The position numbers were made by a program, and so were the translations under genes. This document shows, in pieces, positions 5,382 through 21,497 of a stretch of 64,000 nt of DNA. The notes beneath the pieces are model-generated. The model saw only the letters and a program-made list of their open reading frames with translations, had not been told where the DNA came from and ran no database searches. The stretch lies in assembly GCA_027451985.1 (NCBI GenBank), contig DAIDHS010000014.1, forward strand, positions 1,748 through 65,747, given 5' to 3'. Source of the stretch: Elusimicrobiota bacterium. GTDB taxonomy: Bacteria; Elusimicrobiota; Elusimicrobia; UBA1565; UBA9628. The stretch's first letter is position 1. Each line of letters opens with the position of its first letter.

Positions 5382-5499
5382 AACCCTCTCCTGTGCGCAA
5401 GTTCGGCCGCAAGGCGACCGCTACTTTACGGCTCGGAAAAGCCTAGCGATTATGGCGGCGGGAATGCAAGGTCCGGGCGCGGCCAGGACCGCGGAACCT

Positions 5500-7152
5500 C
5501 TACTTGACGTCCTTGAGGTCCGCCATGTACTTCTGCGCGATGGTGCCGACCGCCAAGCGATAGTTGATCTCGGCCTGGGCCAGCGCGAGCGCGACGCCGT
5601 TGAGGCTTTGCTGCGCCTGCAGGGCCAAGTCTTGAGACTGCAGCACGCGGAAGGAATCGCTCAGGCCCAGACGCAGCCGTGCTTGCTCCTGCTCGAACTG
5701 CAGCCAGGACAGCCGCGCCGCAGCCTGGGCCACTTGGTAGCGCAAAGACTCGGTCTCAACGCCGCGCACGGCCGAGCGCACATCGAAGCGTACGGTGTTC
5801 TCCGTCCCTTGCAGCGCAAGTTCAGCCTGCTCCCGCGCGGCCTTGGCGGCGCGGTACTTGTCGATGTAGATGCGGTCACCGATGGGAATACTGAAGGCCC
5901 CCCCCACCGACCAAGCGTGGTCGCGGCCGTGCAGGGCGCCGGTAATGGCGTCGTTGAGCGCGCCCGGATCGCCGCTTTGGTTGCTGCCGCCGCTGGCCAA
6001 GGTGCCGGTGAAGTCAAGCTGAGGCAGAAGCGCGTTCCTGGCTTGGGCCAGGAAGGCGTTCTGCTCCGCCAGCACGCTGCGGGCCTGAGCGACGTCGGGG
6101 CGGAGCTTGAGCGCCATGGCCACGGCCTGAGAAAGCGGCGGCAACGTCGGAGCGGCCGCGGGCGCGCCGGTGGCTGTACCGATGGTGTAGCGCTCGTTAT
6201 CGAGCAGTTCCTGCACCTGCGCGCCGTAACAAAGGAAAATCAGATTATCCGCGTCGTCCTCACGGGTGCGCACGGCCTCCAAATAGGAGGTGCGCAGGAT
6301 TTCCACCTGCTCCTCCGAGGTCAGCGCGTCGTGCGCGGAGAGCAGGTTCAACTTGTTGAGCTCCTGGTTCTGGCGCATGATTTTTTCCGCGATGCGCAGG
6401 GACTTGAGCGTCACGGCCTCATTGCTCTCGTCTTGCCGAAGCGTCCAATAGCCGCTCTCGACCGCGGCCACCGTTTGCTGCAAAATGCGTTTGGACGCGG
6501 CCAGAGCCGCGTCGCCGCCCTCCTGCGCGATTTTGGCCGCGGCGAAAGCGGCGCTGCGCCCGAAACCCCGCAAAAGCGGCTGGGTGACGTCCAAGATGAC
6601 GCTTGAGTTGAACAGCGGCTGCGTGGGGGCGATCGAGTTCTCCTGCGTGCGCTGATTCTGCGCCGAAATGGAGAGCAGCGTGCCGATGGTGGTGTTTTTG
6701 TCGATTTTGAAAGTGGTGGTCTGGGAGTTGCTGTAGCTTTCCGCCGGAATCACGCCCGGCGTGTAAACGACGTGCTGGCCGATGTGGCTCTGCGAATAAT
6801 CGGCGCTGAAAACCGGATCGAAGGCGGCGACGTTCGCCTTGGCCCCGTAGCGCGCGTTGGCCAGGGCCGCCTCCGAGGCCAGGAAGCTCAGGTTGCGCGC
6901 GACCGCGACCTGGACCAGCGTCTCAAGCGGCACGCGCACGATAGTTTCATCGACGGTAAAGCGCGTCACCACGTCCGCGGTCGAAACCACCATCGCCGCG
7001 GCCTCCGCGGACAAGGTCGAGACGCTCAAGGCCGCGGATGGCGGCGCAGGAACTTTGGCCGCCGACCTGGCTGCGCGGGCTTGTCCGGGCGCGGCGCAAA
7101 GCAGAAGAGCCGCCGCAGCAATCAGAGCCTGAAGCTTCCCCCTCATGCTCAA
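5500..7152 (-). CDS. TolC-family outer membrane efflux protein
   Basis: 550 aa with signal peptide. Two-repeat coiled-coil/beta architecture, Ala/Gln/Leu-rich helical repeats, and a C-terminus typical of OEP family. ATGA overlap with the upstream ABC gene. Confidence 0.75.
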   Translation of the reverse strand: MSMRGKLQALIAAAALLLCAAPGQARAARSAAKVPAPPSAALSVSTLSAEAAAMVVSTADVVTRFTVDETIVRVPLETLVQVAVARNLSFLASEAALANARYGAKANVAAFDPVFSADYSQSHIGQHVVYTPGVIPAESYSNSQTTTFKIDKNTTIGTLLSISAQNQRTQENSIAPTQPLFNSSVILDVTQPLLRGFGRSAAFAAAKIAQEGGDAALAASKRILQQTVAAVESGYWTLRQDESNEAVTLKSLRIAEKIMRQNQELNKLNLLSAHDALTSEEQVEILRTSYLEAVRTREDDADNLIFLCYGAQVQELLDNERYTIGTATGAPAAAPTLPPLSQAVAMALKLRPDVAQARSVLAEQNAFLAQARNALLPQLDFTGTLASGGSNQSGDPGALNDAITGALHGRDHAWSVGGAFSIPIGDRIYIDKYRAAKAAREQAELALQGTENTVRFDVRSAVRGVETESLRYQVAQAAARLSWLQFEQEQARLRLGLSDSFRVLQSQDLALQAQQSLNGVALALAQAEINYRLAVGTIAQKYMADLKDVK

Positions 7153-9902: not shown

Positions 9903-12057
9903 ACGCTCCGCCTTGGACTTTCAACTCGTCGTGGGTGCCGCGCTCGACCGTGCGGCCTTCCTCGAGCACGATGATTTCGTCCGCATCGCGCACGGTGCTA
10001 AGTCGGTGCGCGATGATGATGCAGGTGCAGCCGCGGCGGCGCAGGTTCTCGTCGATAGTTTTCTCCGTCACTGTGTCTAAGGCGCTGGTGGCCTCGTCCA
10101 AGACCAGCACGCGCGGGTTCAAGACCAAGGCGCGCGCGATTTCCAGGCGCTGGCGCTGGCCGCCGCTCAAATTGGCGCCGCCCTCCTCCAAAATCGCGTC
10201 GTAGCCGCCGACGCGCGCCACGATGTCGTTGTGGATGCAGGCGTCCTTGGCCGCGGCGACCATCTGTTCCTCGGGCACGGTGTCGTCCCAGAGGGTCAAG
10301 TTGTCTCGCACCGTCCCGGCGAAGAGCGCGATGTCTTGATCCACCAAGGCCACGGAGTTGGCCAGGATCTCGCGCGGAATGCTCGCGCGCGGCGTCCCGT
10401 CGAAAAGAATTTCCCCGCTCCAGGGCGGGTAGAGGCCCGTGACGATTTTGGAGATGGTCGACTTGCCGCAGCCGCTGGGGCCCACCAGCGCCACGCGGCT
10501 TCCGGGCTTCAACGACAGGCTGAAGTCCTCGATAAGCGGTTCCGAGAGCCGAGAGTAGCCGAAGCTCACGCCGCGCAACTCGACCTGGCCGGAGAGCTTG
10601 GCCGCGGGCGCGGCGCCGGATTTCTGCGCCGCCTCGTCCGCCGCCACATCCGCGTCCACAGGATAGGCCATGACGTCGTCAAGGCGGTTCATGTCGCCCT
10701 CGAATTCCTGGAAGGTGCCCATGAGCGCCACGCAGCGGTTGACCGGCTCGATGAAGCTGGCCATGAGGCTTTGGAAAGCGACCAAGAGGCCCAGAGTCAT
10801 GTGCCCGCGCATCACGCTCAAGCCTCCGAAAGCCAGGACCGCGGCCGTGGCCAGGGCCTGCAAAAGCGGCGGAATCTGTAGAAAGGGCTGCGTGACTTCG
10901 TTCAACTGCATGGTGAAGCTCACCAGCTTGGCCTGGTAACCGGCCCAAGTGGAGAAGAAATCCGACTCTCCCCCGGTCGCCTTCAGGGTCTCGATTGCCT
11001 GGAGCCCTCCCATGGACACGCCCATGAGCTTGCCCTGCTCGCGCACAAGGCGGCGGTTGCCGTCCACGCGCTTTCGCTGGATGGCGCGCGCGGCCGCGTA
11101 GTTGGCGCCCAGGGCGCCGACGGCGACCAAGGTCAAGAGCGGATTGATGGCGAACATCAGGGCGGCGTAGAAGATCACCATGACCGCGTCGACCGCGGCG
11201 CCGGCCATGTCCGCGGCCATGATGTGGGCCAGGCGCTTGTTGATGGCCACGCGGTTGGCGATGTCGCCTCCGAAGCGCTGGGAGTAGAAGTCCACGGGCA
11301 GGCGCAACACGTGCCATAGGAACTTGCCCGAGCCCGAAACCGAGAGCTTGGTCTCCAGGCGGTTGAGATAGTGCTTCTGCAACCAGGTGAGCGCACCGCG
11401 CATGACGGCGGTGATGAGCATGCCTAGAAGAAGGGGCTTGATCCAGTCCGTCATCTGGAGCACGAGGTAGTCATCTACGAAAATGCGGATGAATGTCGGG
11501 ATGACCAAGCCCGGCACTACCAGGGCCAGGCCCGCGATGACGATGTAGGAAAGCGCCTTCTTAGAGGACTCCATGCGCTGGCGCAGGCCCGGCCACAAGG
11601 AGGGCTTCACGCCGCCTTTCTTGAACTCGGGCCCCGGCTTAAAGGCCAGCGTCACGCCTGTGAAACACTCGTCGAACTCCTCATCCGAAACCGTCCGCGG
11701 CCCGGCCGCCGGATCGGCGAGATAGACGACGCCTTTACCGAAGCCCTCGACCACCAGGAAATGGTTGAAATTCCAGAAGACGATGAGCGGCATATCCATT
11801 TGGCGAAGTTCGGCGGGCTCCTTGCGGTAGCCCGTGGCCTCTAATCCATAAGTCCGCGCCGCGCGCAGGATGTTGCGCGCGTTGCTGCCGTCGCGCGAAA
11901 CGCCGCAGGCCTTGCGCAGTTCCTCGAGCGGGACGTAGCGCCCGAAATAGCCCAACACCATGGCCAAGGACGCGGCGCCGCACTCGACCGCCTCCATCTG
12001 CAGGACCGTCGGGACGCGGGCCCGGCGGAAGCTTTCGGATAATTTCAGGAGAGACAC
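9877..12057 (-). CDS. C39 peptidase-domain bacteriocin/lanthipeptide ABC transporter (LanT-like, double-glycine leader protease + exporter)
   Basis: 726 aa. N-terminal C39 domain with catalytic Cys in MEAVECGAASLAMVLGYFG, a permease domain, Walker A GPSGCGKST, LSGGQRQR, LVLDEATSALD. Confidence 0.85.
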   Translation of the reverse strand: MSLLKLSESFRRARVPTVLQMEAVECGAASLAMVLGYFGRYVPLEELRKACGVSRDGSNARNILRAARTYGLEATGYRKEPAELRQMDMPLIVFWNFNHFLVVEGFGKGVVYLADPAAGPRTVSDEEFDECFTGVTLAFKPGPEFKKGGVKPSLWPGLRQRMESSKKALSYIVIAGLALVVPGLVIPTFIRIFVDDYLVLQMTDWIKPLLLGMLITAVMRGALTWLQKHYLNRLETKLSVSGSGKFLWHVLRLPVDFYSQRFGGDIANRVAINKRLAHIMAADMAGAAVDAVMVIFYAALMFAINPLLTLVAVGALGANYAAARAIQRKRVDGNRRLVREQGKLMGVSMGGLQAIETLKATGGESDFFSTWAGYQAKLVSFTMQLNEVTQPFLQIPPLLQALATAAVLAFGGLSVMRGHMTLGLLVAFQSLMASFIEPVNRCVALMGTFQEFEGDMNRLDDVMAYPVDADVAADEAAQKSGAAPAAKLSGQVELRGVSFGYSRLSEPLIEDFSLSLKPGSRVALVGPSGCGKSTISKIVTGLYPPWSGEILFDGTPRASIPREILANSVALVDQDIALFAGTVRDNLTLWDDTVPEEQMVAAAKDACIHNDIVARVGGYDAILEEGGANLSGGQRQRLEIARALVLNPRVLVLDEATSALDTVTEKTIDENLRRRGCTCIIIAHRLSTVRDADEIIVLEEGRTVERGTHDELKVQGGAYARLAGGQ

Positions 12058-12064
12058 GGGGCGA

Positions 12065-13123
12065 TTAGAGCCCCAGCAGGGACTTCATCGCCGGGATGAC
12101 CAAGGTGATGGGGCGGCGCTTTTTGACGATGACGCGCACGTCGCACATCATGCCCGCCTTGATTTTCTGCTGCGGGCCGTCCGATGAGGACCAGCGGTAG
12201 CCGCTAAAATTATTGGGGTCCGCCTCCAGGGAGATACGCAGGATGTAGGGCGCGCCGCCGGAGGTGAGTTCCTGATCGAGGATATTGTTGCGGGTCAACT
12301 CGAAAATCATCTGCTCACGCGCGGGGAACTCGGAGACATAATAGACTTGGCCCTTCAAGTAGCCGTACTCTTCCTTCTTGATCGTGCGCGGCGAGACCTC
12401 CGCGGCCATGCCGGGCTTGGCCTGGTTGCCCACGCTCGGGATAAAGGCGATGGCGTTCAAAGACTGCTTCTCGCTGAAATAGGTCATGAGGAAAGCGCCT
12501 TTTTGGATGAGCGTGCCAGGCGAGGTCATGACTTCCACGATGCGCCCGCTCTTGGGCGCGATCACGTCCGTGGCTTCCTTCAACTCCATGCCGTTCAAGG
12601 CCAGCTGATTCTGGAGGGACTTGAGCTGGCTTTTGGCCTGGGCAAGGTTCTGCTTGGCGTTCTCCAGCACGTCTGGCGCGATGAGCCCCCCCTGCAGGGC
12701 CACCCGCATGGAGTCGACCTGGCGCTGCAGGCTACGCATGTGTTCCTGCGTGGCCGCGATCTTCTGGCTGATTTCCGCGTTCGAGCGGGCGCCGCGCTGC
12801 GCCATGTTGCTCTGATCCAGCGTCGCGACGACTTGTCCCTTTGTTACTGCGTCGCCTTCGCTGACGAAAATCTGCTTGACGATTCCGGTCCCGGGCGAGT
12901 AGATATTGTCCACGCCGCGGGGCGGCATGATGATGGCGGGACCGGAAATCGTCGTGGGAATGCTGCCGAAGACGGACCAGATGAGCGCTAAAGCGATGAG
13001 TCCGCAGAGCGTCCACAGGGCATACCAGCCCTTGGGTGTGGTCACCTGCATCAGGTAGTCTAGTTGCTCGGGAGAGGAGAGGCGTTCCAGAGAGGTTTTT
13101 CTAAAGATTTCCTGCTCGGCCAT
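12065..13123 (-). CDS. HlyD-family membrane fusion / NHLM bacteriocin secretion protein
   Basis: 352 aa. An N-terminal TM helix (WYALWTLCGLIALALIWSVF), a long coiled-coil (LQRQVDSMRVALQ...LKSLQNQLALN) and a C-terminal beta-barrel domain. Confidence 0.8.
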   Translation of the reverse strand: MAEQEIFRKTSLERLSSPEQLDYLMQVTTPKGWYALWTLCGLIALALIWSVFGSIPTTISGPAIIMPPRGVDNIYSPGTGIVKQIFVSEGDAVTKGQVVATLDQSNMAQRGARSNAEISQKIAATQEHMRSLQRQVDSMRVALQGGLIAPDVLENAKQNLAQAKSQLKSLQNQLALNGMELKEATDVIAPKSGRIVEVMTSPGTLIQKGAFLMTYFSEKQSLNAIAFIPSVGNQAKPGMAAEVSPRTIKKEEYGYLKGQVYYVSEFPAREQMIFELTRNNILDQELTSGGAPYILRISLEADPNNFSGYRWSSSDGPQQKIKAGMMCDVRVIVKKRRPITLVIPAMKSLLGL

Positions 13124-13155: not shown

Positions 13156-16100
13156 TCAAGCGAAGATTTCGACCTCGGGGAGTCCCTTTTGCAAAAAACG
13201 CGCGGCCGCGTAGCCGACGCCCGATTGACCCTGAAAAAATCCAGGGGTGGGCAGGCCCGCATCGAAGCCCAGGCGCAGGGCGCCTCGCTCGGTGCGGGAC
13301 GCCACGAGCGCGATGTCTCGCCGCGCCCACCGCGCCAAATTATCGTCTTTAAGAGCCTCTGCGGCGCGCTTTAAAAAAAGAGCGACGCCCACCTTGCCGC
13401 AGCACAAGTGATCGACGGGAGGCTCATCCGCGTGGCGCCAAGCCGCCGTGGCGGCTTGGCGCACGCTCAGCGAAAAATCGACACCCAGAAGCCGGCCCGT
13501 TTCCAAAAGCCCAAGACCCACGCCCGCCGCTCCGCCGCACCAGCTGGAGACAAAGCGCGGTTTGTCTCCCTGCCCGAAATCGCGCCAGTCCGGCCAGCCG
13601 CCCGCCTCGGCGTCGTAGCGCGCGGCGCAAAGCTCGGCCAAGTCGCGGGCCGCGGCGGCCCACGGGCCACCGCGCTTGGCCATGCGCGCGCAGACGTAGG
13701 CCGCGCCCGCCGCGCCGTGCGCTAAGCCCAATTCCGGACGCGCGTTTCGGCGCGACGCGGCCGCGCTGAAGAGCTCCCGGCTCGCCGCCAGAAATTCTTT
13801 CGAGAGCTCCTCGCGGCGACGCTCGATTTCGCCCGCGAGCGCGGCGGGAAGCCCCTGCGGCAGGACCTCCAGCGCCAAAAGAGCGCCCGGGATTCCCCCC
13901 AGCAGGTCCGCTCGGCGCGCGTCCTCCAGAGACAGGTATTTGGGCGAAAGCGCCGCCGCCAGATGGGCCGCGTCCAGGACTAGAGATTCATCTTTCAGGA
14001 TGCGGCCGATAGCCGATAAGCCGTAGGGCAAGGAGGCCGCGCCCGTGCCCACGCCCAGGCCCATGATGCGCACCATCCGCTCCATGCCGTATCGCTGCGC
14101 GTCGCGGGCGGCGAGCTTGGCCGTGGCCAGGGCCGTGCGGCGGGCGCGCTCGTGCCCCCCGACGGCGTGGGCCGCGGCCAGGAAAAGGGAAATGCCCATC
14201 GCCCCGTCGAAAAGCCGGCCGCCCACGGGACCGTACTGCCAGTTGCGCGAACGTTCGTCGTAGCACAGGGACAGCCACCAAGCCTCGTCGTTTTCCGCCA
14301 TCAGGGCGCCGTCTAAGATGCCGTCGGCCAGGCGTAAAATCACGCTCTTAAGCGTCTCCGGCGAGGCGTCGGCCTCTTCGGCGCCCTCCGGAGCGGACTT
14401 CCCCTGCGCCGCTTTGGGCATAAAAAAGCTCGCGCGCAGGAACTGCCTTTGCCGGGATAAATCAGGCTCGCCCAGCGCGGACAAGCGCCCGCGGACCAGG
14501 TCCAGCGGCGCTTCGTTCATCGTCAGAATCCGCCGCCCGCCGCAAGACGCGTACGCCCGGCCCGGCGCCGTTTTAAAAACCGGAACGTCCCGGTAAGACA
14601 ACGTCGCGATTTCCTCAACGGCGCACAAGCCGAGGCCCCGCCGCTCTTCCTCGTCTTCCACGCCGGAGAGCGCCCGCCACAAGGGCTCGAACACCAAGCC
14701 ATGGGCCGCGCCGTCCTTGAGCGCCGCGGGCTCCAGAGACTTTTGCAGCAGGTGGGCGTAGACCTTGGTGTTGCGCAGGATAAAGCGGGTCGGGATATCC
14801 CGGAGAGGCTCGAGCGCGGCGGAAGCGGCTTCGCGGATCTCGGGATGCAGAGCCTGGCCATAGGCCTCGGTAAAGCCCGTTTCGATGTCGTCTAGATAAT
14901 CGGCCGCGGCGACGGGCCGGCCGTTTAAAAGCGGTTTGTTCGCGCTGGGCGGGGCGGCCGTCCGGACCTTGGCCACGCGCATGCGGTCGCGGTTGGGAAA
15001 TTGCCACGCCAGGACTTCTCCCGATTCGCCCGCGCTTCCCCCCGCCAATCCGCTCGACTCCAAAACCCGGTCGCCGCCCAAAAACTCGTAGCGGGGCAGA
15101 AGCGCCGTGCGCACGACCGATTCAAAGAAGAAGCGGTGCAGCGCCAAGTTGGACGCGCCAAAGGCGTCCGCTCCCATACGCGGCCTCGGGCAGCACACGG
15201 TCTCCAAATCGATGGGATAAGGCCCCGCGGCGGTCGCGACGATGTTCTCGTGATGCAGGTCCGAGGCGCCCAGCAGGTACATGTGGAAGAGCAGCTCTCC
15301 CGCCGCCTTGAAATATCTCCGGACTTCGACCTCGGTTTTAAAATCGGCGCGGCGGGCAAATTCGCAGTAGCCGTAGCCGTCGCGGCCCAGTACGCGCAGG
15401 CGACCTAAGCTTGAGGCAAAACCCGCGGCGCCGATGCCGTCCAAGTAGGCGCCAAACCACGCCTCGGCCGCCAATGATTTGGGCTTATAAAGGAAGCGTG
15501 CGCCGCCTTCCGATTCCAGCACGGCCACGGTCTTTCCGCCCTCGTGCGGATCCGAGACGCCGAATTGGACGTGCCGCGCGCGCGCGGGCGCGCCTCCCAC
15601 GACGAAGAGCCGGACGACTTCCGGCCAATCCTCGGTCAAACGGGAAACGAACAGGGTCATGTTCCTGCGCCAATTTTCCAGCAAAACGGCCATGACGCGC
15701 AGAAGGACCGGGTATTCCCCGAAGAAAGCCCGGAAGCCGTCTTCCTGAAATTTAAGGATGAAGGCGCGGAAAGCGGCGTCTGACTCCGCGTCGAAACCGG
15801 AGAGGCTTTCGCCCTCCAGGTTTTTAAAAACGGCGAACTCAGCCGCGAGGCAATAGGCCGAAACGCCGCACAAGTTGTTGAGTAGATCGTGCCGTAAATC
15901 GTCCCAGGCCTCCGCCGCCAGCGGAGCCTCGGGAACAGCCGCCGCGCAAGAGCTCTGAAGACGCGCAAGCTCGTGATGCGTCAGGGCCGACCAGACGGGG
16001 CCAAACGCCACGTCCGCGTCGGGCAAAACGGCTCCGCTTTGCGAATTTCTCAGCACGCCGGAGAAAAACTCGACGATGTCCACAGCTGCGGGGACCCAGC

Positions 16101-16299
16101 GTTCGTCATCAGGAGGCGATCCGCCGAAGGCTTTGCGCTGTTCCAAAAGTCCGGGAGTGAGCGGATCGATGGCCACGCGCCATGCCTCCACGTCCAGGCC
16201 CCGCGCGCCGTCGGCCGAAAGCCGCTCGGACAAAAGGCGCGCTTTGGGTAGAAGCGCCTGAACGAAGGCTTCCGGCGGGGCGAAGGACGCGGCGCTCAC
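13156..16299 (-). CDS. class II lanthipeptide synthetase LanM (ProcM-like, CCG zinc motif)
   Basis: The DUF4135 dehydratase domain carries the conserved DLHHENIV. The C-terminal LanC-like cyclase has GLAHGAAG, SWCGGAAG (WCxG) and HLCCGKVG (CCG instead of CHG). The start is set at the GTG overlapping the upstream TGA stop (GTGA at 16296-16299); the first 207 codons of ORF 13156..16917 overlap the JmjC gene in another frame and hold no Met. Confidence 0.85.
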   Translation of the reverse strand: MSAASFAPPEAFVQALLPKARLLSERLSADGARGLDVEAWRVAIDPLTPGLLEQRKAFGGSPPDDERWVPAAVDIVEFFSGVLRNSQSGAVLPDADVAFGPVWSALTHHELARLQSSCAAAVPEAPLAAEAWDDLRHDLLNNLCGVSAYCLAAEFAVFKNLEGESLSGFDAESDAAFRAFILKFQEDGFRAFFGEYPVLLRVMAVLLENWRRNMTLFVSRLTEDWPEVVRLFVVGGAPARARHVQFGVSDPHEGGKTVAVLESEGGARFLYKPKSLAAEAWFGAYLDGIGAAGFASSLGRLRVLGRDGYGYCEFARRADFKTEVEVRRYFKAAGELLFHMYLLGASDLHHENIVATAAGPYPIDLETVCCPRPRMGADAFGASNLALHRFFFESVVRTALLPRYEFLGGDRVLESSGLAGGSAGESGEVLAWQFPNRDRMRVAKVRTAAPPSANKPLLNGRPVAAADYLDDIETGFTEAYGQALHPEIREAASAALEPLRDIPTRFILRNTKVYAHLLQKSLEPAALKDGAAHGLVFEPLWRALSGVEDEEERRGLGLCAVEEIATLSYRDVPVFKTAPGRAYASCGGRRILTMNEAPLDLVRGRLSALGEPDLSRQRQFLRASFFMPKAAQGKSAPEGAEEADASPETLKSVILRLADGILDGALMAENDEAWWLSLCYDERSRNWQYGPVGGRLFDGAMGISLFLAAAHAVGGHERARRTALATAKLAARDAQRYGMERMVRIMGLGVGTGAASLPYGLSAIGRILKDESLVLDAAHLAAALSPKYLSLEDARRADLLGGIPGALLALEVLPQGLPAALAGEIERRREELSKEFLAASRELFSAAASRRNARPELGLAHGAAGAAYVCARMAKRGGPWAAAARDLAELCAARYDAEAGGWPDWRDFGQGDKPRFVSSWCGGAAGVGLGLLETGRLLGVDFSLSVRQAATAAWRHADEPPVDHLCCGKVGVALFLKRAAEALKDDNLARWARRDIALVASRTERGALRLGFDAGLPTPGFFQGQSGVGYAAARFLQKGLPEVEIFA

Positions 16300-17027
16300 G
16301 CCTCCTCCCGGCGCAGACGCCACGCCTGCGGGTCGTCCGCGATCGCATCCAGAAATGCGGAGAGGTTCGTGTGGTTGACGAAGTTGAAGCTCAAAGTCAC
16401 GGAAGGCTCGAGGCTGCGCGCGGAGTGCACCTGCCCGGCGGGCACGAGCAGCACGTCGCCGGGCTCCAGATCCGCTCTCTTGACCGCGGACCGCGCCTTT
16501 TCTCCGGCCGGGCCGTGCAGGCTTACGCACTTGCGGCCGATGATTTGCGCGAGCCAGGCGTGCGTGGAAAACAAATCCGTGTGCGGCAAAGTCTCGGTCC
16601 CTGCGGGGCCGATGAAAAGCCAGCCGAACTTCTTCAAATACCACTCCTTGTCCGCGGGGGAGCGGAAATCGAGCAGCGTGCGGCAGAACTCCGGAAAAGC
16701 GAAGTCCTCCAGCAGCTCGGGGTGCTTCGCGAAAGGAGAATATTGCAGGGTATACCAGCGCGGCTCGCTCTCGGGTCCGGCGCCGCCTAAAATCCAATCG
16801 ATGAAGCCGGCCAGAAGCACTTTCTTGCCGCGCTTGGTTCCGCCGATGTTGTCGCCCACGACCAACTCGTCTTGCCCCAGCGCCTCGCGCAAAAAATCCC
16901 AGGTCCAGCGCCCGCACGCCCGCCAGTGCTTGGCGTAGCCTTTAAAGAGCGCCGGCGCGCCCGGAGAAGCGAGCAGCGCGCGCTCGGCCTCCTCTGCGGA
17001 AATGCCCTCTTTGAAAACGCGGATCAT
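16296..17027 (-). CDS. JmjC/cupin-type Fe(II)/2-oxoglutarate-dependent oxygenase (putative peptide hydroxylase)
   Basis: 243 aa from the internal Met MIRVFKEG. An HxD...H triad is visible (LPHTDLFSTHAW ... AGQVHSA) in a beta-roll context. ATGA overlap with the upstream gene; its stop overlaps the LanM GTG. Confidence 0.6.
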   Translation of the reverse strand: MIRVFKEGISAEEAERALLASPGAPALFKGYAKHWRACGRWTWDFLREALGQDELVVGDNIGGTKRGKKVLLAGFIDWILGGAGPESEPRWYTLQYSPFAKHPELLEDFAFPEFCRTLLDFRSPADKEWYLKKFGWLFIGPAGTETLPHTDLFSTHAWLAQIIGRKCVSLHGPAGEKARSAVKRADLEPGDVLLVPAGQVHSARSLEPSVTLSFNFVNHTNLSAFLDAIADDPQAWRLRREEA

Positions 17028-17926
17028 GACGGCGCGGCGGCGGAAAGGGCGGAGCGGCGGCGGATCTCCGCCCCGAAGCGATCCGTCAAGACGCCCGAGA
17101 GCCTCTCCAGCAGCCGGTCGCACAGATCTCGCGGAGTGTAGCCCGAAATGCGCGAGAGGCTGATGCCGATGAACCGGCAGTCCATATCCGAGCTTTTAAG
17201 CCACGCGGCGAAGCGATCCAGGCGCGCGAAGGCTTCCTCGTCCGTGGCCGTGCGGCCCTCGCCGCGCCCCTCCGAACGACCGAAGACCAGCAGGTGCCGT
17301 CCGTCGGGCGAGATCGTGGGGCTGACCGGAGCGCCGGGGGAAATGCGCAGAAGATGATACGGGTTGCTCTTAAAGCTTTCAAACTCGCCCGCGGTGACCT
17401 CAAGAGCGACCGGAGCGCGGTCCGGAGTCAGGTTGCAGGAGAAATAGTCCAGGCAGACGTCGAGCGCGACCGGGCCTTGCGGGCGGATGTCGGAAAGAGC
17501 CTTGACCCGAGCGAAGCGCGCCTGGGCGGCGTCCGGCTTGCCTTCCAATTCGGGCGGCAGCGGCCCTTTGGCCCAGACCATGGCGCGGCGCGCCGGATCA
17601 GTCGTGAAAACGCAGACCGGGCCGTCGTAGGGGATCGTGGCCTCGTGCTCGCGGTGCCACCACACCTCGCCGAAGAGGCCGTGAAGCATGGCCGGCCAGA
17701 TGAAGTTGGCGATGTTGAGCTCCTTCAAGACGAAGGCGCGTGTCTCCGCGAGGCCCGCTTCCGGCTTGAGCATCGGGCCCTGCAGCGTGGGCAAGTCCAT
17801 GTCCGAGTGCTCGTCGATGTGGACCAAGGAACTGCCCCGCGCGGGAAGGACGCCCCTGACGGCGGCCTCCTTCCAGAAGTAGAACGCCTCGTGGTGCTCC
17901 TCGAAAACGACGCAGGAGACGGGCAT
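17024..17926 (-). CDS. UPF0489-like (C5orf22-like) domain protein, function unknown
   Basis: 300 aa from MPVSCVVFEEHHEAFYFW. The motif block VFEEHHE...LVHIDEHSDMD resembles UPF0489 as I recall it, with low certainty. TGATG overlap with the upstream GNAT. Confidence 0.4.
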   Translation of the reverse strand: MPVSCVVFEEHHEAFYFWKEAAVRGVLPARGSSLVHIDEHSDMDLPTLQGPMLKPEAGLAETRAFVLKELNIANFIWPAMLHGLFGEVWWHREHEATIPYDGPVCVFTTDPARRAMVWAKGPLPPELEGKPDAAQARFARVKALSDIRPQGPVALDVCLDYFSCNLTPDRAPVALEVTAGEFESFKSNPYHLLRISPGAPVSPTISPDGRHLLVFGRSEGRGEGRTATDEEAFARLDRFAAWLKSSDMDCRFIGISLSRISGYTPRDLCDRLLERLSGVLTDRFGAEIRRRSALSAAAPS

Positions 17927-18858
17927 CAGCTCCGCGCGGGGGCGAGCAGGACTTCGAGCCCGCGCAAAGTCCAGGTCCTGTCCAGGCAGGGCACCAAGTG
18001 CTTGTTCAAGGAGCGCAGCCACTCGGGATATTCCAGCGGCACGTCGAACTCGGCGCAGCTGGGCGAACCTTTTTTCAAAAACATCTGGTAATGCGCGTTC
18101 ATGGCCGCGCGCAGGAGAAGCACGGCCGCGGCGCGGTGGCGCGAGGCGAAGTCCGGCTCGACCCAGAACTTGGTGTAGTAGAGCGTGTCCGGCTTCTCCG
18201 CGAAGCGGTGGGTCGCGAACCAGCCCTTGGCCTCGTCGCCCGCAAACAGCATCTGGCTCGTCTCCCAGTCGAGCTCACTTTGCCTAAAGCGCACGCCCAG
18301 GTGGGCCGGACCCCCGGCGCGCGAACCCCGCTCGATGGGGTCAAGCCCCTCGACGCGGGCTTTGGCCCAGGAAATCACGCGCCAATCGGCGGTCGAGGAT
18401 TCCCCCGCCCCCTTGGCCCAGCGCGGGATGTTCGCGATGCGGCTCTGTCCGAAGAAGATGCGCGTAAAAGGCGTCCCGTAGCCCGCCTTGATGATGGTCT
18501 TTTCCGCGGCTTCCAAGCCCGTGATGCGGCTGCCGTAATTCAAGGAAAGCCGCTCAAGATCAGGGGCGCGGGAAAGCTCTTCCCTCAAGCGGCGCAGCAA
18601 CGCGGCGCCGAGGCCTTGCCGGCGATATTCCGGCGCGACGTAGACGGAAAGCAGTTCGGCCCTATGCTCCGCGGCAATGAGACCGGCCAGAGCCAAGCCC
18701 TGCGGCTCGCCGCCTAAAGTCCGCGCGGCCGCGGCCAGCCAGGGAAATTCCTTCTTCGCGGCGCCTTCGGCGTAGGACGGGTAAGTGAGACCGGCCCAAG
18801 GGGCGAAGTCGGCTTCGGCGTTAAGGATGGAAATTTCGGAATCTAAAGCGGCGTTCAC
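17926..18858 (-). CDS. GNAT family N-acetyltransferase with C-terminal extension
   Basis: 310 aa. GNAT motif A is LSVYVAPEYRRQGLGAALLRRL. A C-terminal ~170 aa domain is of unknown function. Confidence 0.55.
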   Translation of the reverse strand: MNAALDSEISILNAEADFAPWAGLTYPSYAEGAAKKEFPWLAAAARTLGGEPQGLALAGLIAAEHRAELLSVYVAPEYRRQGLGAALLRRLREELSRAPDLERLSLNYGSRITGLEAAEKTIIKAGYGTPFTRIFFGQSRIANIPRWAKGAGESSTADWRVISWAKARVEGLDPIERGSRAGGPAHLGVRFRQSELDWETSQMLFAGDEAKGWFATHRFAEKPDTLYYTKFWVEPDFASRHRAAAVLLLRAAMNAHYQMFLKKGSPSCAEFDVPLEYPEWLRSLNKHLVPCLDRTWTLRGLEVLLAPARS

Positions 18859-18950: not shown

Positions 18951-19268
18951 CTACATGCTCATCATGACGCAGGCCGAGGAGCCGCCGCAGCTCGCGCCGC
19001 AGCGCCCGCCGCCCGCGACTTTCTCAAGCTCGCTGTCCGAGAGCTCGCCGCCCGCCTTAACCAGATCGGGCACCACGACCACCAAGTCCGCGCCGTTGCG
19101 CGCCACGGCCTTGATGTTGAAGCCTTGCGGAAGCTCCTTGCCGGAGACTTCTTTGACCGCCGCGCTGGGGTTTTTGAGCGCCAGCTCGCGGAACTTCGCG
19201 TCCGTCGAAGCCTTGCGCGAGAACGCTTCCAAGGCTTTTTTTTGCTCGTCTTGGGTCCAGGGTTTCAT
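18951..19268 (-). CDS. lanthipeptide precursor A1 with NHLP (nitrile hydratase leader peptide)-type leader
   Basis: 105 aa. The leader is MKPWTQDEQKKALEAF...DAKFRELALKNP...LVVVVPDLVKAGGELSDSELEKVAGG. The predicted core is G-RCGASCGGSSACVMMSM, with 3 Cys and 4 Ser. Confidence 0.8.
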   Translation of the reverse strand: MKPWTQDEQKKALEAFSRKASTDAKFRELALKNPSAAVKEVSGKELPQGFNIKAVARNGADLVVVVPDLVKAGGELSDSELEKVAGGGRCGASCGGSSACVMMSM

Positions 19269-19331
19269 CGTTTTCTCCTTAAGAATAATTTAAACGGCCC
19301 GCCTTTCCTTTATATCGATTTGCAAATGCGC

Positions 19332-19694
19332 TTAAACGCAGGCTCCACCCACTCCCGGCACGTACGTAGGCCCCGGAGGCACCGTGGACGAAACCAGGCA
19401 GACCTGGCTGATACCGCAGCTTCCCGCGCAGCGTCCTCCCGCGACCTTCTCGAGTTCGCTGTCCGAGAGCTCGCCGCCCGCCTTGACCAGGTCGGGAACC
19501 ACAAGCACCATGTCCGCGCCGTCCCTCGCCACCGCCGCGACCTTAAAGCCCGCCGGCAGATCCTTGCCGGAGACTTCCTTGACCGCCGCGGCCGGATTCT
19601 TGAGCGCCAACTCGCGGAATTTCGCGTCCGTCGAGGCCTTGCGTGCGAACGCCTCCAAAGCCTTTTTCTTTTCGTCCTGCGTCCAAGGTTTCAT
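19332..19694 (-). CDS. lanthipeptide precursor A2 with NHLP-type leader
   Basis: 120 aa. The leader is almost identical to A1 and ends ...SDSELEKVAGG. The predicted core is RCAGSCGISQVCLVSSTVPPGPTYVPGVGGACV, with 4 Cys and 6 Ser/Thr. The ATG overlaps the upstream gene's stop (ATGA). Confidence 0.8.
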   Translation of the reverse strand: MKPWTQDEKKKALEAFARKASTDAKFRELALKNPAAAVKEVSGKDLPAGFKVAAVARDGADMVLVVPDLVKAGGELSDSELEKVAGGRCAGSCGISQVCLVSSTVPPGPTYVPGVGGACV

Positions 19695-20449
19695 GCGATT
19701 TTCTCCTTTCCCTCGAAAGCCGCGCGCGTCTCGCCGACGGCGGCAAGTTCCACGCGCAGATTAAAATTATCCGGAAGATGCCGCCCCATTATCCGGGCGG
19801 CGGCGCCGCGCGGATCGGACAAGAAGCGCCCCTTAAAGTCCGGCCGGGCCGCGGCGCGTTTCAAGACGGTTCGGCGTAGGCATTGGATTTCGAATTCGTT
19901 CGGAGGCGGCGCGGGCGGAAACACCTCGCCCTCGCCCAGCACGGTGATGCGCGCCGCCAAGGCCTGCCGCCAGCACTCGCGCGCGGCGGCGAGAACGTCC
20001 GCGAAATCCCGGACCGGCGCCAGCGGCGCGGCTTTCGCACCCGAATCGGCCACCAGGGCGCCGTAGCAGGCGAGCGCTTCCCGGAGCTTTTGAAGTTCAG
20101 CGCCACTAACGTCCGCGCCCAACGCACGCGCATCGAACGCCACGCATCGGGTGCGCGGCGCCGGAATGAAAACGGGGACGCAGGTCGCGCCGACGAACTC
20201 GGTCTCCATCAAATCAAAAAGAAATTCCCCGGCCCGGACGTCGAAAAGTTTGTGCCGCCGGATGAAGACGCCGCTTTCGGGATGGCGCCGCGCCAGAAAC
20301 AGGCTGAGGCGGCCCTCCAAGACAAGCCACGCGCGGCCCGGGGAGCCACACTGAACGTAGGGAACCCCGCCGGGGAGTTCTTGTCCGACGGCCTCGATGC
20401 GTTGCTCCAAGGTCCCGGGCTCCACTGTCATCTTAGAGGATGCTATCAT
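19691..20449 (-). CDS. cyclic-nucleotide-binding-like (beta-roll) domain protein, standalone
   Basis: 252 aa from MIASSKMTVEPG (SD-like aaaaagagaaat upstream). The N-terminal domain LVLEGRLSLFLARRHPESGVFIRRHKLFDVRAGEFLFDL resembles a cNMP-binding fold. The stop overlaps the A2 start. Confidence 0.45.
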   Translation of the reverse strand: MIASSKMTVEPGTLEQRIEAVGQELPGGVPYVQCGSPGRAWLVLEGRLSLFLARRHPESGVFIRRHKLFDVRAGEFLFDLMETEFVGATCVPVFIPAPRTRCVAFDARALGADVSGAELQKLREALACYGALVADSGAKAAPLAPVRDFADVLAAARECWRQALAARITVLGEGEVFPPAPPPNEFEIQCLRRTVLKRAAARPDFKGRFLSDPRGAAARIMGRHLPDNFNLRVELAAVGETRAAFEGKEKIA

Positions 20450-20468
20450 ATTTCTCTTTTTCGTCGTT

Positions 20469-21497
20469 TTAGCGGCCAAAAAAAGCACGAGCCGCAATCG
20501 CATTACAGATCAGATACGCGACGGGATAGAGCGCGCGGGAAGCGGAGCGCACGCGCGCCGCAGTCCGGGACGAGCGCGCTTGGGCCGCGCGATGAACCAC
20601 GACGATTTCCACTATGGACAACGCGGAAAAGACGAAGCAAATGAGGAAGAACGCGTCGATGTAGGTCAGATACGGTAGGTGCGGCAGGCTGCCCGAGATG
20701 ACGAACAAGAAGGCCACCATCGTCAGCGTGGCGCTCAAGGCCACGGAGAACTGAGCCGCCACGTCAGTCTCATTGATCCACAAGGCGCAGTAGGACACGA
20801 TGACCATGATAAAGAGCGGCAGGAACACCTTCCATATATAGTAGCCGTAGCGGCGCTTGATGAGCATGTTAAAGTCGATTTCTGGGATGCTGCCGCCCTT
20901 GCCGCCCAGCACCGACTCCGCGGGCACGGCCTTCATGCCGAGCATCTTCCACTGCGCCAGAAGCGCCCAAGGCTGGCTATTGATGCCGGTCTGCCCCGGG
21001 TCGGGGATGGGATTGACCACGTCCCGCTCATCGAGGAACGGCTGGATGACCACGGGCAGGACCTGCTCGTCGAAGGGAAAACGGTGGAAGCTCATCTGCA
21101 TGGTGAGGTCGTCCTCGAAGTCCTCCCAGAAAACCACCGTGCCGTCGGGCTTGCGCCGGACGTTGGTGCCCAGCTTGAAGAGCCCGTTGACGGCGTTGGC
21201 CATGATGACGTTGGGCGTCCAGATTTTAGCCGGATCGCAGAGCCGATCTTTGTCCTTGGGGCCGCGCGGAACGTACTTGAGTCGAGGATCCTTCCACTGC
21301 TCATAGAGGTATCCCCGGATGCGGAAGGTCTGCGCGACCTCGTCGACGCCCACCAAGTCGGTCACGTAGACGCCTACTTTGACAGGCACGCGCCCGCCGC
21401 TGGACGGCGGAGGAGGAGGAATTTGACGGGCCGAAGCCCGAAGCCCCGTGGACAGAAGAGGAATCAGGAGCGTAACGGCAATTGCGGTGCGCTTCAT
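20469..21497 (-). CDS. prokaryotic pentameric (Cys-loop family) ligand-gated ion channel homologue
   Basis: 342 aa. Signal peptide, ~200 aa beta-rich extracellular domain, then pre-M1/M1 RRYGYYIWKVFLPLFIMVIVSYCALWI (GLIC/ELIC-like R-x-Y..LP..F....S..A.W), M2 SVALSATLTMVAFLFVISGSLP, M3 and a short M4. Confidence 0.7.
   Translation of the reverse strand: MKRTAIAVTLLIPLLSTGLRASARQIPPPPPSSGGRVPVKVGVYVTDLVGVDEVAQTFRIRGYLYEQWKDPRLKYVPRGPKDKDRLCDPAKIWTPNVIMANAVNGLFKLGTNVRRKPDGTVVFWEDFEDDLTMQMSFHRFPFDEQVLPVVIQPFLDERDVVNPIPDPGQTGINSQPWALLAQWKMLGMKAVPAESVLGGKGGSIPEIDFNMLIKRRYGYYIWKVFLPLFIMVIVSYCALWINETDVAAQFSVALSATLTMVAFLFVISGSLPHLPYLTYIDAFFLICFVFSALSIVEIVVVHRAAQARSSRTAARVRSASRALYPVAYLICNAIAARAFFGR

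Follow-up and report, generated by a model that had tools for sequence, protein, structure and literature searches.

A CRP-like beta-roll joined to a putative core-less NHLP leader-like domain in a selidamide-like lanthipeptide cluster

Directly upstream of a precursor gene in a lanthipeptide cluster of an Elusimicrobiota bacterium lies a gene that raises the following question: what kind of protein does it encode, and what might that protein do alongside the precursors? We analyzed a stretch of 64,000 nucleotides that contains the cluster (hereafter, the window) and characterized the gene (19691..20449, minus strand) by its open reading frame, its homologues, dN/dS and AlphaFold2 modelling. 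The encoded protein consists of a beta-roll, a helical linker and a core-less NHLP-like domain, and it is a very rare two-part protein, in which a CRP-like beta-roll is followed by a copy of the folded precursor leader that carries no cargo.

The gene, its cluster and its relatives

The window harbors a selidamide-like class II lanthipeptide cluster with two NHLP precursors, an arginase, a hydroxylase, a GNAT, a LanM and an NHLP-type exporter (all features described here are on the minus strand). Precursor A2 (19332..19694; 120 aa; TIGR03793, E=1.4e-12) has an NHLP leader, a GG site and the core RCAGSC...PGVGGACV, and precursor A1 (18951..19268; 105 aa; TIGR03793, E=7.4e-13) has an NHLP leader, a GG site and the core (G)RCGASCGGSSACVMMSM. 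They are followed by a GNAT acyltransferase, i.e., a selidamide-type N protein (17926..18858; PF00583, E=1e-11; context in PMC8784127), a peptide arginase that converts Arg to Orn (ORF 17024..18022, with the true start probably downstream; NF052474, E=6e-50; PF12640), a PhaI-like Cupin_8/JmjC hydroxylase (16296..17027) and the class II lanthipeptide synthetase LanM (13156..16299; TIGR03897, E=1e-166). The hydroxylase gene was concealed beneath an over-extended "LanM" ORF; it shows 79% identity (tblastn, residues 1-241) to the cupin of locus L001, from which its Pfam annotation is taken. Alignment to the N-terminus of the L001 LanM places the true start of LanM near 16299, resulting in an overlap of 4 nt with the stop codon of the hydroxylase. 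The export module (5500..13123; TIGR03794, TIGR03796 and TIGR03797 above cut-off, with TolC-family matches) comprises HlyD (12065-13123), ABC1 with a C39 peptidase (9877-12057), ABC2 (7149-9902) and a TolC-like outer-membrane protein (5500-7152). Residues ~230-360 of ABC2 were compared to the peptidase domain of ABC1, and the presence of a degenerate C39-like domain there was not supported.

The gene under study encodes 252 aa within an enclosing ORF at 19691..20503 (ORF scan). Its start at 20449 (MIASSK...) is backed by the relative P0002, which starts with MIGASE; gene callers elsewhere chose a Met that lies downstream by six codons (P0001, 246 aa). The DNA is GC-rich, and several long ORFs in other frames overlap the gene. 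Homologues were found for the frame of the gene only (P0002, P0003/P0028, P0004, P0020 and P0005), and the pairwise dN/dS values of the family are 0.28-0.47; this is not a chance ORF. Intact ORFs are kept in at least three divergent lineages with 40-57% identity. The ORF is a genuine gene, and purifying selection acts on it. It should be noted that the family is tiny, with about five stand-alone lineages and one split form, so that the conservation statistics are weak. A scan for promoters and terminators around the gene yielded none on the minus strand.

The TGA of the gene (19693..19691) and the ATG of A2 (19694..19692) form an ATGA overlap at 19694..19691, as read from the sequence, and the A2 ribosome-binding site AAGGAG (19708..19703) is located 8 nt before this ATG, within the last codons of the gene; the two signals together span 19691..19708. 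A reading of the sequence alone (hereafter, the sequence-only reading) had interpreted the overlap as translational coupling to A2. The overlap is indeed present in the window, but it is specific to the window, given that the homologues are separated from the precursor gene by gaps of 10-23 nt. Because short overlaps recur in the same operon (cupin/LanM and ABC2/outer-membrane protein), the ATGA overlap by itself is a weak sign of partnership.

A word-indexed homologue search recovered no more than 2-5 members of the family and 3 relatives of the ABC2 N-terminus, and the scans of GTDB genomes and JGI metagenomes produced only relatives of the Elusimicrobiota type. Two proteins that scored strongly in the exhaustive search, P0006 and P0008, were discarded as artefacts, being repeat proteins in which many 1-3-bit matches were summed. 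Wherever the context is readable, the gene immediately downstream of a stand-alone homologue encodes an A2-type NHLP precursor, and the genes upstream of these homologues vary (pLGIC, NTP-transferase or Tag). The co-conservation with NHLP precursors, which the sequence-only reading had suggested as a check, was thus observed in all such cases and, in agreement with that reading, to which no such component was known for lanthipeptide systems, we found none in the literature searched.

A sister cluster contains the two halves of the protein apart: ABC2 carries the beta-roll, and the next gene, which overlaps ABC2 by 4 nt, encodes a core-less NHLP protein of 75 aa. This split arrangement is present on 15 contigs. 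The gene order in L008, L013, L014 and L015 is ABC1, ABC2 (with a beta-roll similar to that of the protein under study), the 75-aa core-less NHLP protein, A1, A2, A1, GNAT, arginase and LanM, and the split cluster carries its own GerE-type regulator.

Domains of the encoded protein

A profile search of 1.84 billion representatives divides the protein cleanly into an ABC2-like part and an NHLP-like part. The former is a CRP/cNMP-type beta-roll, residues ~22-111 (20117..20386), as delineated by model strands, Foldseek and ABC2 homology. The AlphaFold2 model, calculated from a 13-row alignment (pLDDT 84.2, pTM 0.80; with a 2-sequence alignment, the pLDDT was 41), has strands at 39-106 and helices at 107-134, i.e., an eight-stranded beta-roll followed by a helix. 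The best Foldseek matches are Mtb CRP, Xanthomonas CLP, GlxR, CooA, PKG and CprK, and the top matches extend over ~125-135 aligned columns, with prob 0.97-1.0 and E values starting at ~3e-4. The pTM suggests that the predicted protein is a single packed unit rather than two independent domains. Among six sequences, 35 positions of the N-domain are invariant; ABC2 fragments were left out of the MAFFT alignments because their tails were misplaced.

The fold is not accompanied by membership of the cNMP sequence family. At E<=10, Pfam gave no match for the protein, P0002 and the N-termini of the window ABC2, P0007, P0021 and P0022; P0004 and P0005 match NHLP-related families only. PF00027 thus does not match the N-domain, and the N-domain alone had no NCBIfam match. 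No cNMP proteins were found either by comparing the N-domain profile to PDB sequences or by a single-protein PDB sequence search, which gave a weak NHLP match of the C-domain only. An hhalign comparison to E. coli CRP was not significant (E=0.75). The phosphate-binding cassette of the cNMP family (Gly-Glu ... Arg-Ser/Thr-Ala) contacts the cyclic phosphate. In the canonical register, taken from this non-significant alignment and partly extended by eye (GDFIGEL on GEFLFDL), G71/E72 of CRP correspond to F78/D79, which are invariant in the family, and R82/S83 are near T89/C90; the invariant P92-x-F94-x-P96 is next, and no conserved Arg is seen there. Given that membership in the cNMP family was not found at the sequence level and that the phosphate-binding Arg has no apparent counterpart in this register, cyclic-nucleotide binding is unlikely, and the protein is probably not a cyclic-nucleotide sensor. 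The designation "cNMP-binding-like" in the sequence-only reading thus holds for the fold, for which the confident AlphaFold model matches the beta-rolls of CRP, CLP, GlxR and PKG, but not for the sequence family.

Sequence similarity of the N-domain leads to the second ABC subunit of the exporter. The stretch from residue 27 to 141 aligns with residues 18-134 of P0007, an ABC2 exporter (E=5e-15 library-wide; 1e-28 in a local hmmsearch against P0007). From residue 247 (335 in P0007) through the TMD and NBD to the C-terminus, P0007 is 41% identical to the window ABC2, and its gene follows a C39-containing ABC1. The window ABC2 has a divergent beta-roll-like N-domain of its own, residues ~20-99 (9606..9845). 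BLASTP between this N-terminus and the protein was not significant, and an HMM of four stand-alone proteins was marginal (E=0.013); hhalign of the N-domain to the window-type ABC2 N-domain yielded a probability of 93% (E=3.5e-7), or 90.5% (E=1.3e-6) when the query profile was built from stand-alone proteins only. These comparisons support the view that the two N-domains are remote homologues. The claim of a free-standing copy of the exporter's N-terminal beta-roll is therefore upheld by the profile matches to P0007 and to the window-type ABC2, whereas the claim that the transporter at 7149-9902 has the same domain as its N-terminus applies in the sense of remote homology, beyond the reach of BLASTP. 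This N-terminal accessory domain, which is cytoplasmic in ABC2, is the sole part that the two proteins have in common: no ABC_membrane or ABC_tran match, i.e., neither the TMD nor the ATP-binding cassette of TIGR03797, was found in the protein.

The helical linker, residues ~112-183 (19901..20116; AlphaFold2 model and alignments), is Pro-rich and contains helices 116-134 and 149-168. The first helix is common to the protein and P0007, for which the match in the profile search stops at residue 141; the remainder occurs only in the stand-alone family, in which P0005 has a shortened form of it.

The sequence-only reading described a stand-alone beta-roll protein, which is correct for the N-domain but misses the C-terminal ~65 residues, a predicted core-less NHLP leader-like domain, residues ~184-247 (19709..19900; TIGR03793, PDB 9cjx_A and profile search). 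The match to TIGR03793 covers model positions 5-46 of 77 with 18.9 bits (E=1e-3), which does not reach the curated cut-off of 50.9 bits; the genuine precursors A1 and A2 have 47-48 bits. The match to PDB 9cjx_A (NHLP) has E=0.011. In library-wide comparisons, residues 184-246 match residues 6-68 of the 75-aa protein P0009 (E=3.7e-9), and the C-domain matches genuine NHLP precursors, among them P0010, P0012 and P0017 with E values from 8e-9 to 6.5e-4; over all NHLP precursors matched, the E values lie between 8e-9 and 9e-4. The NHLP-clan models match P0004 and P0009. The AlphaFold2 model predicts for the C-domain the three-helix bundle (185-201, 203-211 and 213-221) and the beta-hairpin that are typical of the folded part of NHLP leaders; the hairpin strands are at 229-236 and 240-247, and the pLDDT of the second is low. 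In the alignment to PDB 9cjx_A, the hydrophobic-nucleus residues V12, I16, F26, C30, P34 and V38 of DprE2 correspond to L191, V195, F205, F209, P213 and A217, and the salt bridge E8-K44 corresponds to E187-R223.

The protein ends with ...TRAAFEGKEKIA and the stop codon, five residues beyond the predicted hairpin. No flexible C-terminal leader half with hydrophobic -12/-7/-4 positions, LxxxxL motif, GG site or Cys/Ser/Thr-rich core was found in the protein, P0004, P0005, P0020 or P0009; without the LxxxxL/GG half and the core, the protein would not be cleavable, modifiable in a core or exportable as a product. The Elusimicrobiota relatives P0002 and P0003/P0028 stop at KLRLD and have no second hairpin strand; thus, the complete NHLP fold is not strictly conserved. 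The presence of the NHLP domain shifts the functional reading from a binder to a binder that carries, in the same chain, a mimic of the ligand it presumably binds.

The order of a beta-roll, a helix and a small helical domain with a hairpin resembles CRP, and Foldseek gave several alignments of 200-237 columns with full-length CRP, GlxR and Vfr. The protein could then be a CRP/FNR-like transcription factor, in which the beta-roll and the long helix form a dimeric sensor and the C-domain is a winged-helix-like DNA binder that controls the cluster, where no other regulator is evident. We consider this very unlikely: the 200-237-column alignments have RMSD of 12-18 A, Pfam gave no match to HTH_Crp_2/Crp or other HTH families at E<=10, the sequence homology of the C-domain is to NHLP leaders and not to HTH, and the beta-roll of the split form belongs to a membrane transporter in a cluster that has its own GerE-type regulator. 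A PqqD-like RRE was likewise not found by Pfam, and the best 50 Foldseek matches are almost all of the CRP/cNMP type, none being an RRE.

Possible roles in export and maturation

We tentatively propose that the protein is a soluble, non-enzymatic leader-mimic or docking accessory of the selidamide-like cluster, acting in the hand-over of precursors or in the gating of the exporter. The exporter-type beta-roll would be a docking site for a folded NHLP domain, and the two modules would be binding partners, so that the protein would represent a receptor and pseudo-ligand unit produced alongside the precursors. It would hand NHLP precursors to the ABC1/ABC2 exporter or gate this exporter, for example, as a pseudo-substrate that occupies its non-catalytic side. 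The modules are regarded as candidate binding partners because they are split in the sister cluster, with the beta-roll on ABC2 and the NHLP protein in the next gene; the existence of fused and split forms is suggestive of an interaction between the beta-roll and the NHLP fold.

The analysis shows the gene, its domain architecture, homologies and fold, the fused and split forms and the adjacency to A2-type precursors; this interaction and a role in hand-over or export, rather than in a modification step, are what we infer. In E. coli, the arginase, (hydroxylase,) GNAT and LanM genes alone sufficed for the full maturation of kamptornamide and phaeornamide (PMC8784127); thus, an extra factor is not needed for modification in these reconstituted related pathways. 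The folded half of NHLP leaders is a protein-protein interaction module, and its partners bind to different surfaces (PMC12537861; PMC12455567). The exporter PCAT1 binds two substrates, only one of which is positioned for transport (PMC6959990), and HetC, also a PCAT, requires its N-terminal cNMP-type domain (PMC10986499). Against the docking reading stand the incomplete NHLP fold of the Elusimicrobiota relatives, the small size of the family and further observations. The window ABC2 retains its own, very divergent beta-roll, which makes a second, soluble copy hard to explain; and ORF, Pfam and NCBIfam annotation revealed no obvious regulator in the window cluster, which leaves room for a regulatory role.

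A broader proposal is that the N-terminal beta-roll of ABC2 in NHLP/Nif11 exporters is a receptor devoted to the folded leader domain of NHLP precursors, and that the core-less NHLP domain, whether fused as here or separate as in the sister cluster, is a naturally encoded pseudo-substrate. The latter would occupy or prime that half of the heterodimeric exporter which is not catalytic, or escort precursors to the exporter. We regard this generalization as doubtful.

The CRP-type effector fold of the beta-roll (AlphaFold2 and Foldseek) is consistent with a ligand-controlled decoy: the beta-roll would sense a small molecule, e.g., a nucleotide alarmone, and expose or hide the core-less NHLP domain, which would compete with A1 and A2 for docking to LanM, arginase or GNAT and thereby tune maturation to the physiological state. 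In support of such control, the essential N-terminal cNMP-type domain of HetC binds ppGpp with KD ~59 uM (PMC10986499), and LanM docks on the trihelical nucleus of NHLP leaders (PMC12537861), which is kept in the protein. Nevertheless, we consider a decoy unlikely, because PF00027 does not match the protein, the canonical phosphate-binding Arg/Ser have no counterpart (in the register of the non-significant alignment), the beta-roll of the split form resides on the exporter, away from the enzymes, and the acidic segment through which NHLP leaders make their second contact to LanM is missing from the C-domain (PMC12537861).

A precursor chaperone, one of the roles suggested by the sequence-only reading, would also fit the strict adjacency to A2-type precursors and the shared orientation that all lineages show, the ATGA coupling in the window and the hint of a beta-roll/NHLP interaction from the fused and split forms. 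The beta-roll would bind the NHLP leader of newly made A2 or A1 and protect or solubilize the precursor until modification, and the C-terminal NHLP-like domain would be a mere auto-inhibitory or stabilizing plug. Such a chaperone appears distinctly unlikely, given that NHLP leaders are already stable folded domains (the Tm of DprE2 is 67 C; PMC12537861), that maturation by related pathways proceeds in E. coli with no factor of this kind (PMC8784127), and that the beta-roll of the split form is tethered to the membrane on the exporter.

Against the interaction on which the docking reading depends, it can be argued that the fused and split forms could reflect a breakpoint of operon rearrangement. 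In the extreme case, the protein is a functionless by-product, produced by the fusion of the 5' end of ABC2 to a small NHLP-like gene. Its architecture amounts to P0007 residues 18-134, a linker and P0009 residues 6-68, and the change in gene order between the split and fused clusters is as expected from a breakpoint inside ABC2. Conversely, at least three divergent lineages keep the ORF intact (40-57% identity, dN/dS 0.28-0.47), 35 N-domain positions are invariant in six sequences, and the AlphaFold2 model is confident and compact, which makes the absence of function exceedingly improbable.

Implications and comparison with known systems

NHLP (proteusin-type) leaders are unusually large and folded, and distinct maturases grip distinct surfaces of these leaders (PMC12537861; PMC12455567). 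The literature searched did not address how the three-gene exporter recognizes NHLP leaders or why its second ABC subunit has an extra N-domain. The protein links this exporter domain with a cargo-less leader fold, as a fusion in some clusters and as neighboring genes in another, and so provides a concrete, testable binding hypothesis for the recognition of large folded leaders by the exporter, one that concerns two small soluble proteins. If the receptor/pseudo-substrate reading is true, RiPP biosynthesis would have its first natural component of the leader-mimic kind, and the ABC2 N-domain its first assigned function. A natural leader mimic, should it tune or gate export or maturation, could be exploited for the heterologous production of lipo-lanthipeptides (selidamide-type) and would extend the RiPP genome-mining rules by a new class of accessory component. 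If the protein is instead a small-molecule-controlled decoy or regulator, it would still represent a new regulatory design for RiPP clusters.

Compared to the NHLP (proteusin) leaders DprE2 (PDB 9cjx) and MprE7, the C-domain is homologous in sequence, with the three helices and hairpin predicted and the nucleus and Glu-Lys/Arg salt bridge retained; in contrast to them, the protein is not a precursor, has no Pro-rich/acidic flexible half and carries the domain at the C-terminus of a larger protein. No naturally encoded core-less leader domain was found in the literature searched. The ABC2 N-domain (TIGR03797; P0007 and the window ABC2) is a homologous beta-roll from the same type of gene cluster; unlike ABC2, the protein is soluble and has the NHLP-like domain in place of the transmembrane and ATPase domains. 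For this N-domain, we found no published function in the literature searched, and Haft et al. 2010 state only that ABC2 has no peptidase domain. HetC of Nostoc PCC 7120 is an ABC exporter that contains a peptidase and, at its N-terminus, a cNMP-type domain, which is essential and binds neither cAMP nor 2-oxoglutarate (PMC10986499). The likeness is a CRP-type effector fold tied to a bacteriocin-type exporter system; however, the HetC domain matches PF00027 and binds ppGpp, whereas the domain described here does not match PF00027, stands apart from any exporter and is joined to a leader-like domain.

The CRP/FNR factors (CRP, CLP, GlxR, CooA and CprK) are the best structural match to the beta-roll and helix and have a similar domain order, whereas the protein has neither HTH nor PF00027 at the sequence level, the cAMP-contacting Arg/Ser are not conserved (in the non-significant register), and the C-domain belongs to the NHLP clan. 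RREs are non-catalytic leader-recognition modules, and leaders supplied in trans or fused to LanM are active without an attached core. RREs are cited in PMC12537861, where the dpr cluster has DprR. The concept of a PqqD-like RRE is thus similar to that of the proposed docking accessory, whereas the folds differ: a predicted beta-roll here and a winged helix in the RRE.

The gene and its lanthipeptide cluster

The longest open reading frame of the target gene spans 19691..20503 on the minus strand. From the sequence and a relative we accepted the start at 20449 (MIASSKMTVEPG...), which gives 252 aa, because the closest relative opens with MIGASEAT in the same register. The DNA here is GC-rich and several long ORFs overlap the target in other frames; therefore, ORF length alone is no proof of a gene. 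Intact homologues with 40-57% identity exist in the target frame, and pairwise dN/dS in the family is 0.28-0.47, the two pairs with least saturation giving 0.28 and 0.32. On these sequence grounds the target is a real gene under selection; a functionless product of rearrangement appears very improbable. Pfam gave no match at E<=10. A word-indexed search of 5.8 billion proteins returned nothing but the target and a single relative, encoded in an Elusimicrobiota MAG. When 1.84 billion cluster representatives were searched exhaustively with HMMER, 18 proteins scored E<=1e-3. The full-length relatives are P0002, P0003/P0028, P0004, P0020 and P0005, with about five stand-alone lineages over all public data searched. 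Two highly repetitive proteins among the 18 matches, P0006 (3038 aa, E=6e-20) and P0008 (1447 aa, E=2e-12), were rejected as repeat-protein artefacts, their E-values being inflated because 19-25 repeats each add 1-3 bits. It should be noted that whole-sequence E-values can mislead for such repeat proteins.

On the minus strand of the window, the target is followed by the NHLP precursors A2 (120 aa) and A1 (105 aa), together at 18951-19694, and by GNAT, a peptide arginase of FlmR/OhkR type, a Cupin_8/JmjC hydroxylase, LanM, HlyD (TIGR03794), ABC1 with its C39 peptidase (TIGR03796), ABC2 (7149-9902, TIGR03797) and a TolC-like outer-membrane protein. The ATGA coupling to A2 proposed in the sequence-only reading can be seen directly: the target stop TGA (19693..19691) shares bases with the A2 ATG (19694..19692), and AAGGAG at 19708..19703, the A2 ribosome-binding site, lies within the last target codons. 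This overlap occurs in the window alone, whereas the other homologues leave a gap of 10-23 nt to the precursor gene.

Arg-Cys opens both cores just past GG, with one additional Gly before it in A1. The A1-type core is short, (G)RCGxSCG..., and the A2-type core is long, RCxxSC...PGVGGACV; both types are conserved across clusters, with one LanM only for the two. Precursor loci are found in the window and in contigs L006 (1093-1446), L008 (3449-4620) and L011 (5745-6485), all with the conserved A2 core end. The mechanically called "LanM" ORF of 1253 aa (13156..16917) was rejected as over-extended: a PhaI-like hydroxylase gene, 79% identical to that of contig L001, lies under it in another frame (16296..17027), and the true LanM start is near 16299, overlapping the hydroxylase stop by 4 nt. 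The cluster therefore holds arginase, hydroxylase, GNAT and LanM, the complete phaeornamide-type set. Kamptornamide and phaeornamide, two selidamide lipopeptides, are made with such enzymes, by conversion of Arg to ornithine, optional hydroxylation, N-acylation by GNAT and LanM ring formation (PMC8784127). The products of A1 and A2 look like a two-component, ornithine-acylated lanthipeptide. Directly 3' of the TolC-like gene, the minus strand encodes a C1 cysteine peptidase of the papain family (4386-5381) and a class-A-like protein of the beta-lactamase family (2977-4284), which may be additional genes of the cluster for processing or immunity.

The sequence-only reading had asked whether homologues adjoin NHLP precursors elsewhere, and they do. 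Synteny is complete in the Elusimicrobiota-type contigs L001-L004, L011 and L012 (pLGIC, homologue, A2, A1, GNAT, arginase, cupin, LanM, HlyD, ABC1, ABC2). The upstream gene differs in L005 (NTP-transferase), L006 (probable DNA glycosylase) and the P0004 contig; in L005 and L006 an A2-type NHLP precursor with the core end ...PGVGGACV, as in the window, lies 11-23 nt 3' of the homologue, and in the P0004 contig a 117-aa ORF lies 3' of it. Wherever context is readable, the homologue opens the cluster in every case and precedes the precursors. In the window, a homologue of prokaryotic pentameric ligand-gated ion channels (pLGIC; Neur_chan_LBD + Neur_chan_memb; 20469-21497, minus strand) lies with its end 19 nt ahead of the target gene, a position kept in L001 and L011 but not in L005 and L006. 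Also on the minus strand, one ORF at 22448-24010 combines ThiS, ThiF/MoeB and rhodanese, a fused sulfur-carrier/activating enzyme.

Two modules of the target protein

The exhaustive HMMER search divides the target cleanly into two modules. Target residues 27-141 align with P0007 residues 18-134 (E=5e-15); P0007 is a 983-aa ABC2-type exporter encoded directly after a C39-containing ABC1. Residues ~184-246 align with the core-less 75-aa NHLP protein P0009 (E=3.7e-9) and with bona fide NHLP precursors, of which several carry NHLP domains in tandem (E 8e-9 to 9e-4). The C-domain is also matched by TIGR03793 (E=1e-3, model positions 5-46) and by 9cjx_A, an NHLP leader solved by NMR (E=0.011); NHLP-clan models match P0004 (NF038399 2e-6, TIGR03793 9e-5) and P0009. 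In the 9cjx_A alignment, the DprE2 leader's hydrophobic nucleus (Val12, Ile16, Phe26, Cys30, Pro34, Val38) and its salt bridge Glu8-Lys44 (PMC12537861) correspond to target L191, V195, F205, F209, P213 and A217, and to E187-R223. Judged by these alignments, the C-domain is an NHLP leader reduced to its folded half; the earlier picture of a single beta-roll was right about the beta-roll and missed this domain. The target ends five residues past the predicted hairpin, and its C-domain, read to the stop, contains no flexible acidic segment, LxxxxL, GG or core. The Elusimicrobiota-type P0002 and P0003/P0028 (L001 10001-10687, L011 ~5031-5735) terminate at ...KLRLD, without the last ~18 residues that form the second hairpin strand in the target, P0004, P0020, P0005 and P0009. 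The extra tail of the window target is homologous to the tails of the latter four and overlaps the A2 ribosome-binding site. As for other matches, P0010, P0012, P0013, P0014, P0015, P0018 and P0011 are RiPP-like precursors with two tandem NHLP domains ahead of GG/core, or, in P0011, three NHLP-like repeats; such a leader architecture is unusual.

We modelled the target with AlphaFold2, using 13 aligned rows drawn from family members, NHLP leaders, P0009 and the N-terminus of P0007 (pLDDT 84.2, pTM 0.80; two-sequence input gave pLDDT 41). The model has beta-roll strands between residues 39 and 106, helices at 116-134 and 149-168, three helices at 185-221 and, at lower confidence, a hairpin at 229-247; the pTM is consistent with a packed unit of the two domains. 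Almost all of the 50 best Foldseek matches in the PDB are cNMP-type domains of the CRP/FNR family and PKG (Mtb CRP, CLP, GlxR, CooA, CprK, PKG; probability ~1.0, E from 3e-4, ~125-135 aligned columns). The label "cNMP-binding-like" is thus right for the fold; membership of the cNMP family at the sequence level was not found with Pfam, the N-domain profile against PDB sequences or profile comparison with CRP. In the canonical register, taken from a non-significant alignment, the cAMP-contacting Gly-Glu corresponds to F78-D79, and Arg-Ser to a T/C position followed by an invariant P-x-F-x-P. Nothing in the sequence supports binding of cyclic nucleotides.

Exporter relatives and the split form

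The claim that the same domain forms the N-terminus of the ABC transporter at 7149-9902 holds as remote homology. BLASTP of the target against this ABC2 was not significant, and a small HMM gave E=0.013 in the correct register; profile-profile comparison gave 93% probability (E=3.5e-7, 110 columns) and 90.5% with stand-alone proteins alone as query (E=1.3e-6, 82 columns across the beta-roll). P0007 shares 41% identity with the window ABC2 over a stretch that starts ahead of the membrane domain and runs to the C-terminus. By sequence comparison, the target beta-roll resembles the P0007 N-domain much more closely than that of the ABC2 in its own cluster. ABC2 proteins have 200-300 more residues between beta-roll and membrane domain, a charged helical stretch in the window ABC2 (residues ~100-350) and, in P0021, P0022 and P0007, a second segment rich in beta structure. 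This segment had no family match in these four proteins, and a C39-like domain was rejected, there being no detectable similarity to the ABC1 C39 domain.

In the sister cluster, read in L008, L013, L014 and L015 and arranged in this way on 15 contigs, the order is a divergent GerE regulator, a 554-aa protein, HlyD, ABC1, ABC2 (P0007 type), 75-aa core-less NHLP protein, A1, A2, A1, GNAT, arginase and LanM. Here ABC2 bears the target-like beta-roll, and the start of the 75-aa gene overlaps its stop by 4 nt; therefore, the target amounts to the ABC2 N-domain joined by a linker to the 75-aa protein. Modules that are fused in some genomes, and separate but adjacent in another, are a classic hint of physical cooperation. 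We consider a CRP-like transcription factor improbable: the lack of another regulator in the window cluster speaks for it, but the C-domain is homologous to NHLP and the beta-roll sits on a transporter in the split form, which speak against it.

Putative role in precursor export

The folded half of NHLP leaders is stable (Tm 67 C for DprE2) and serves as a module for protein-protein interaction; LanM grips its nucleus by inserted Trp/Leu side chains, with acidic residues of the flexible half as the second contact (PMC12537861); other enzymes use other NHLP surfaces or the flexible half only (PMC12455567). C39 peptidase domains recognise the -4/-7/-12 positions and GG (PMC12537861), and in PCAT1 two substrates are bound, one alone being positioned for cleavage and transport (PMC6959990). 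Our tentative preference, drawn from sequence relationships, is that the exporter-type beta-roll would be a docking site for the NHLP fold, and that the target, as receptor plus pseudo-ligand, may help to pass precursors to the ABC1/ABC2 exporter or may gate it; the target itself would be neither cleavable nor exportable as a product. A ligand-controlled decoy competing for maturase docking sites seems unlikely, and a plain precursor chaperone somewhat less likely still. In E. coli, maturation in related selidamide pathways needs no factor of this kind (PMC8784127).

Both folds are already known. In NHLP exporters, the literature searched describes no function for the N-domain of ABC2 and no free-standing copy of it; nor does it describe a core-less NHLP leader domain, fused or separate, that is encoded in nature. 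We place the target among the accessory components of RiPP clusters that are related to leaders, with a putative role, and the fusion/fission offers a sharp, cheap experimental handle on the encounter of large folded leaders with their exporter. Among peptidase-containing exporters, HetC has already been described as bearing a cNMP-type domain at its N-terminus; this domain is required, and its ligand is ppGpp, not cAMP (PMC10986499).
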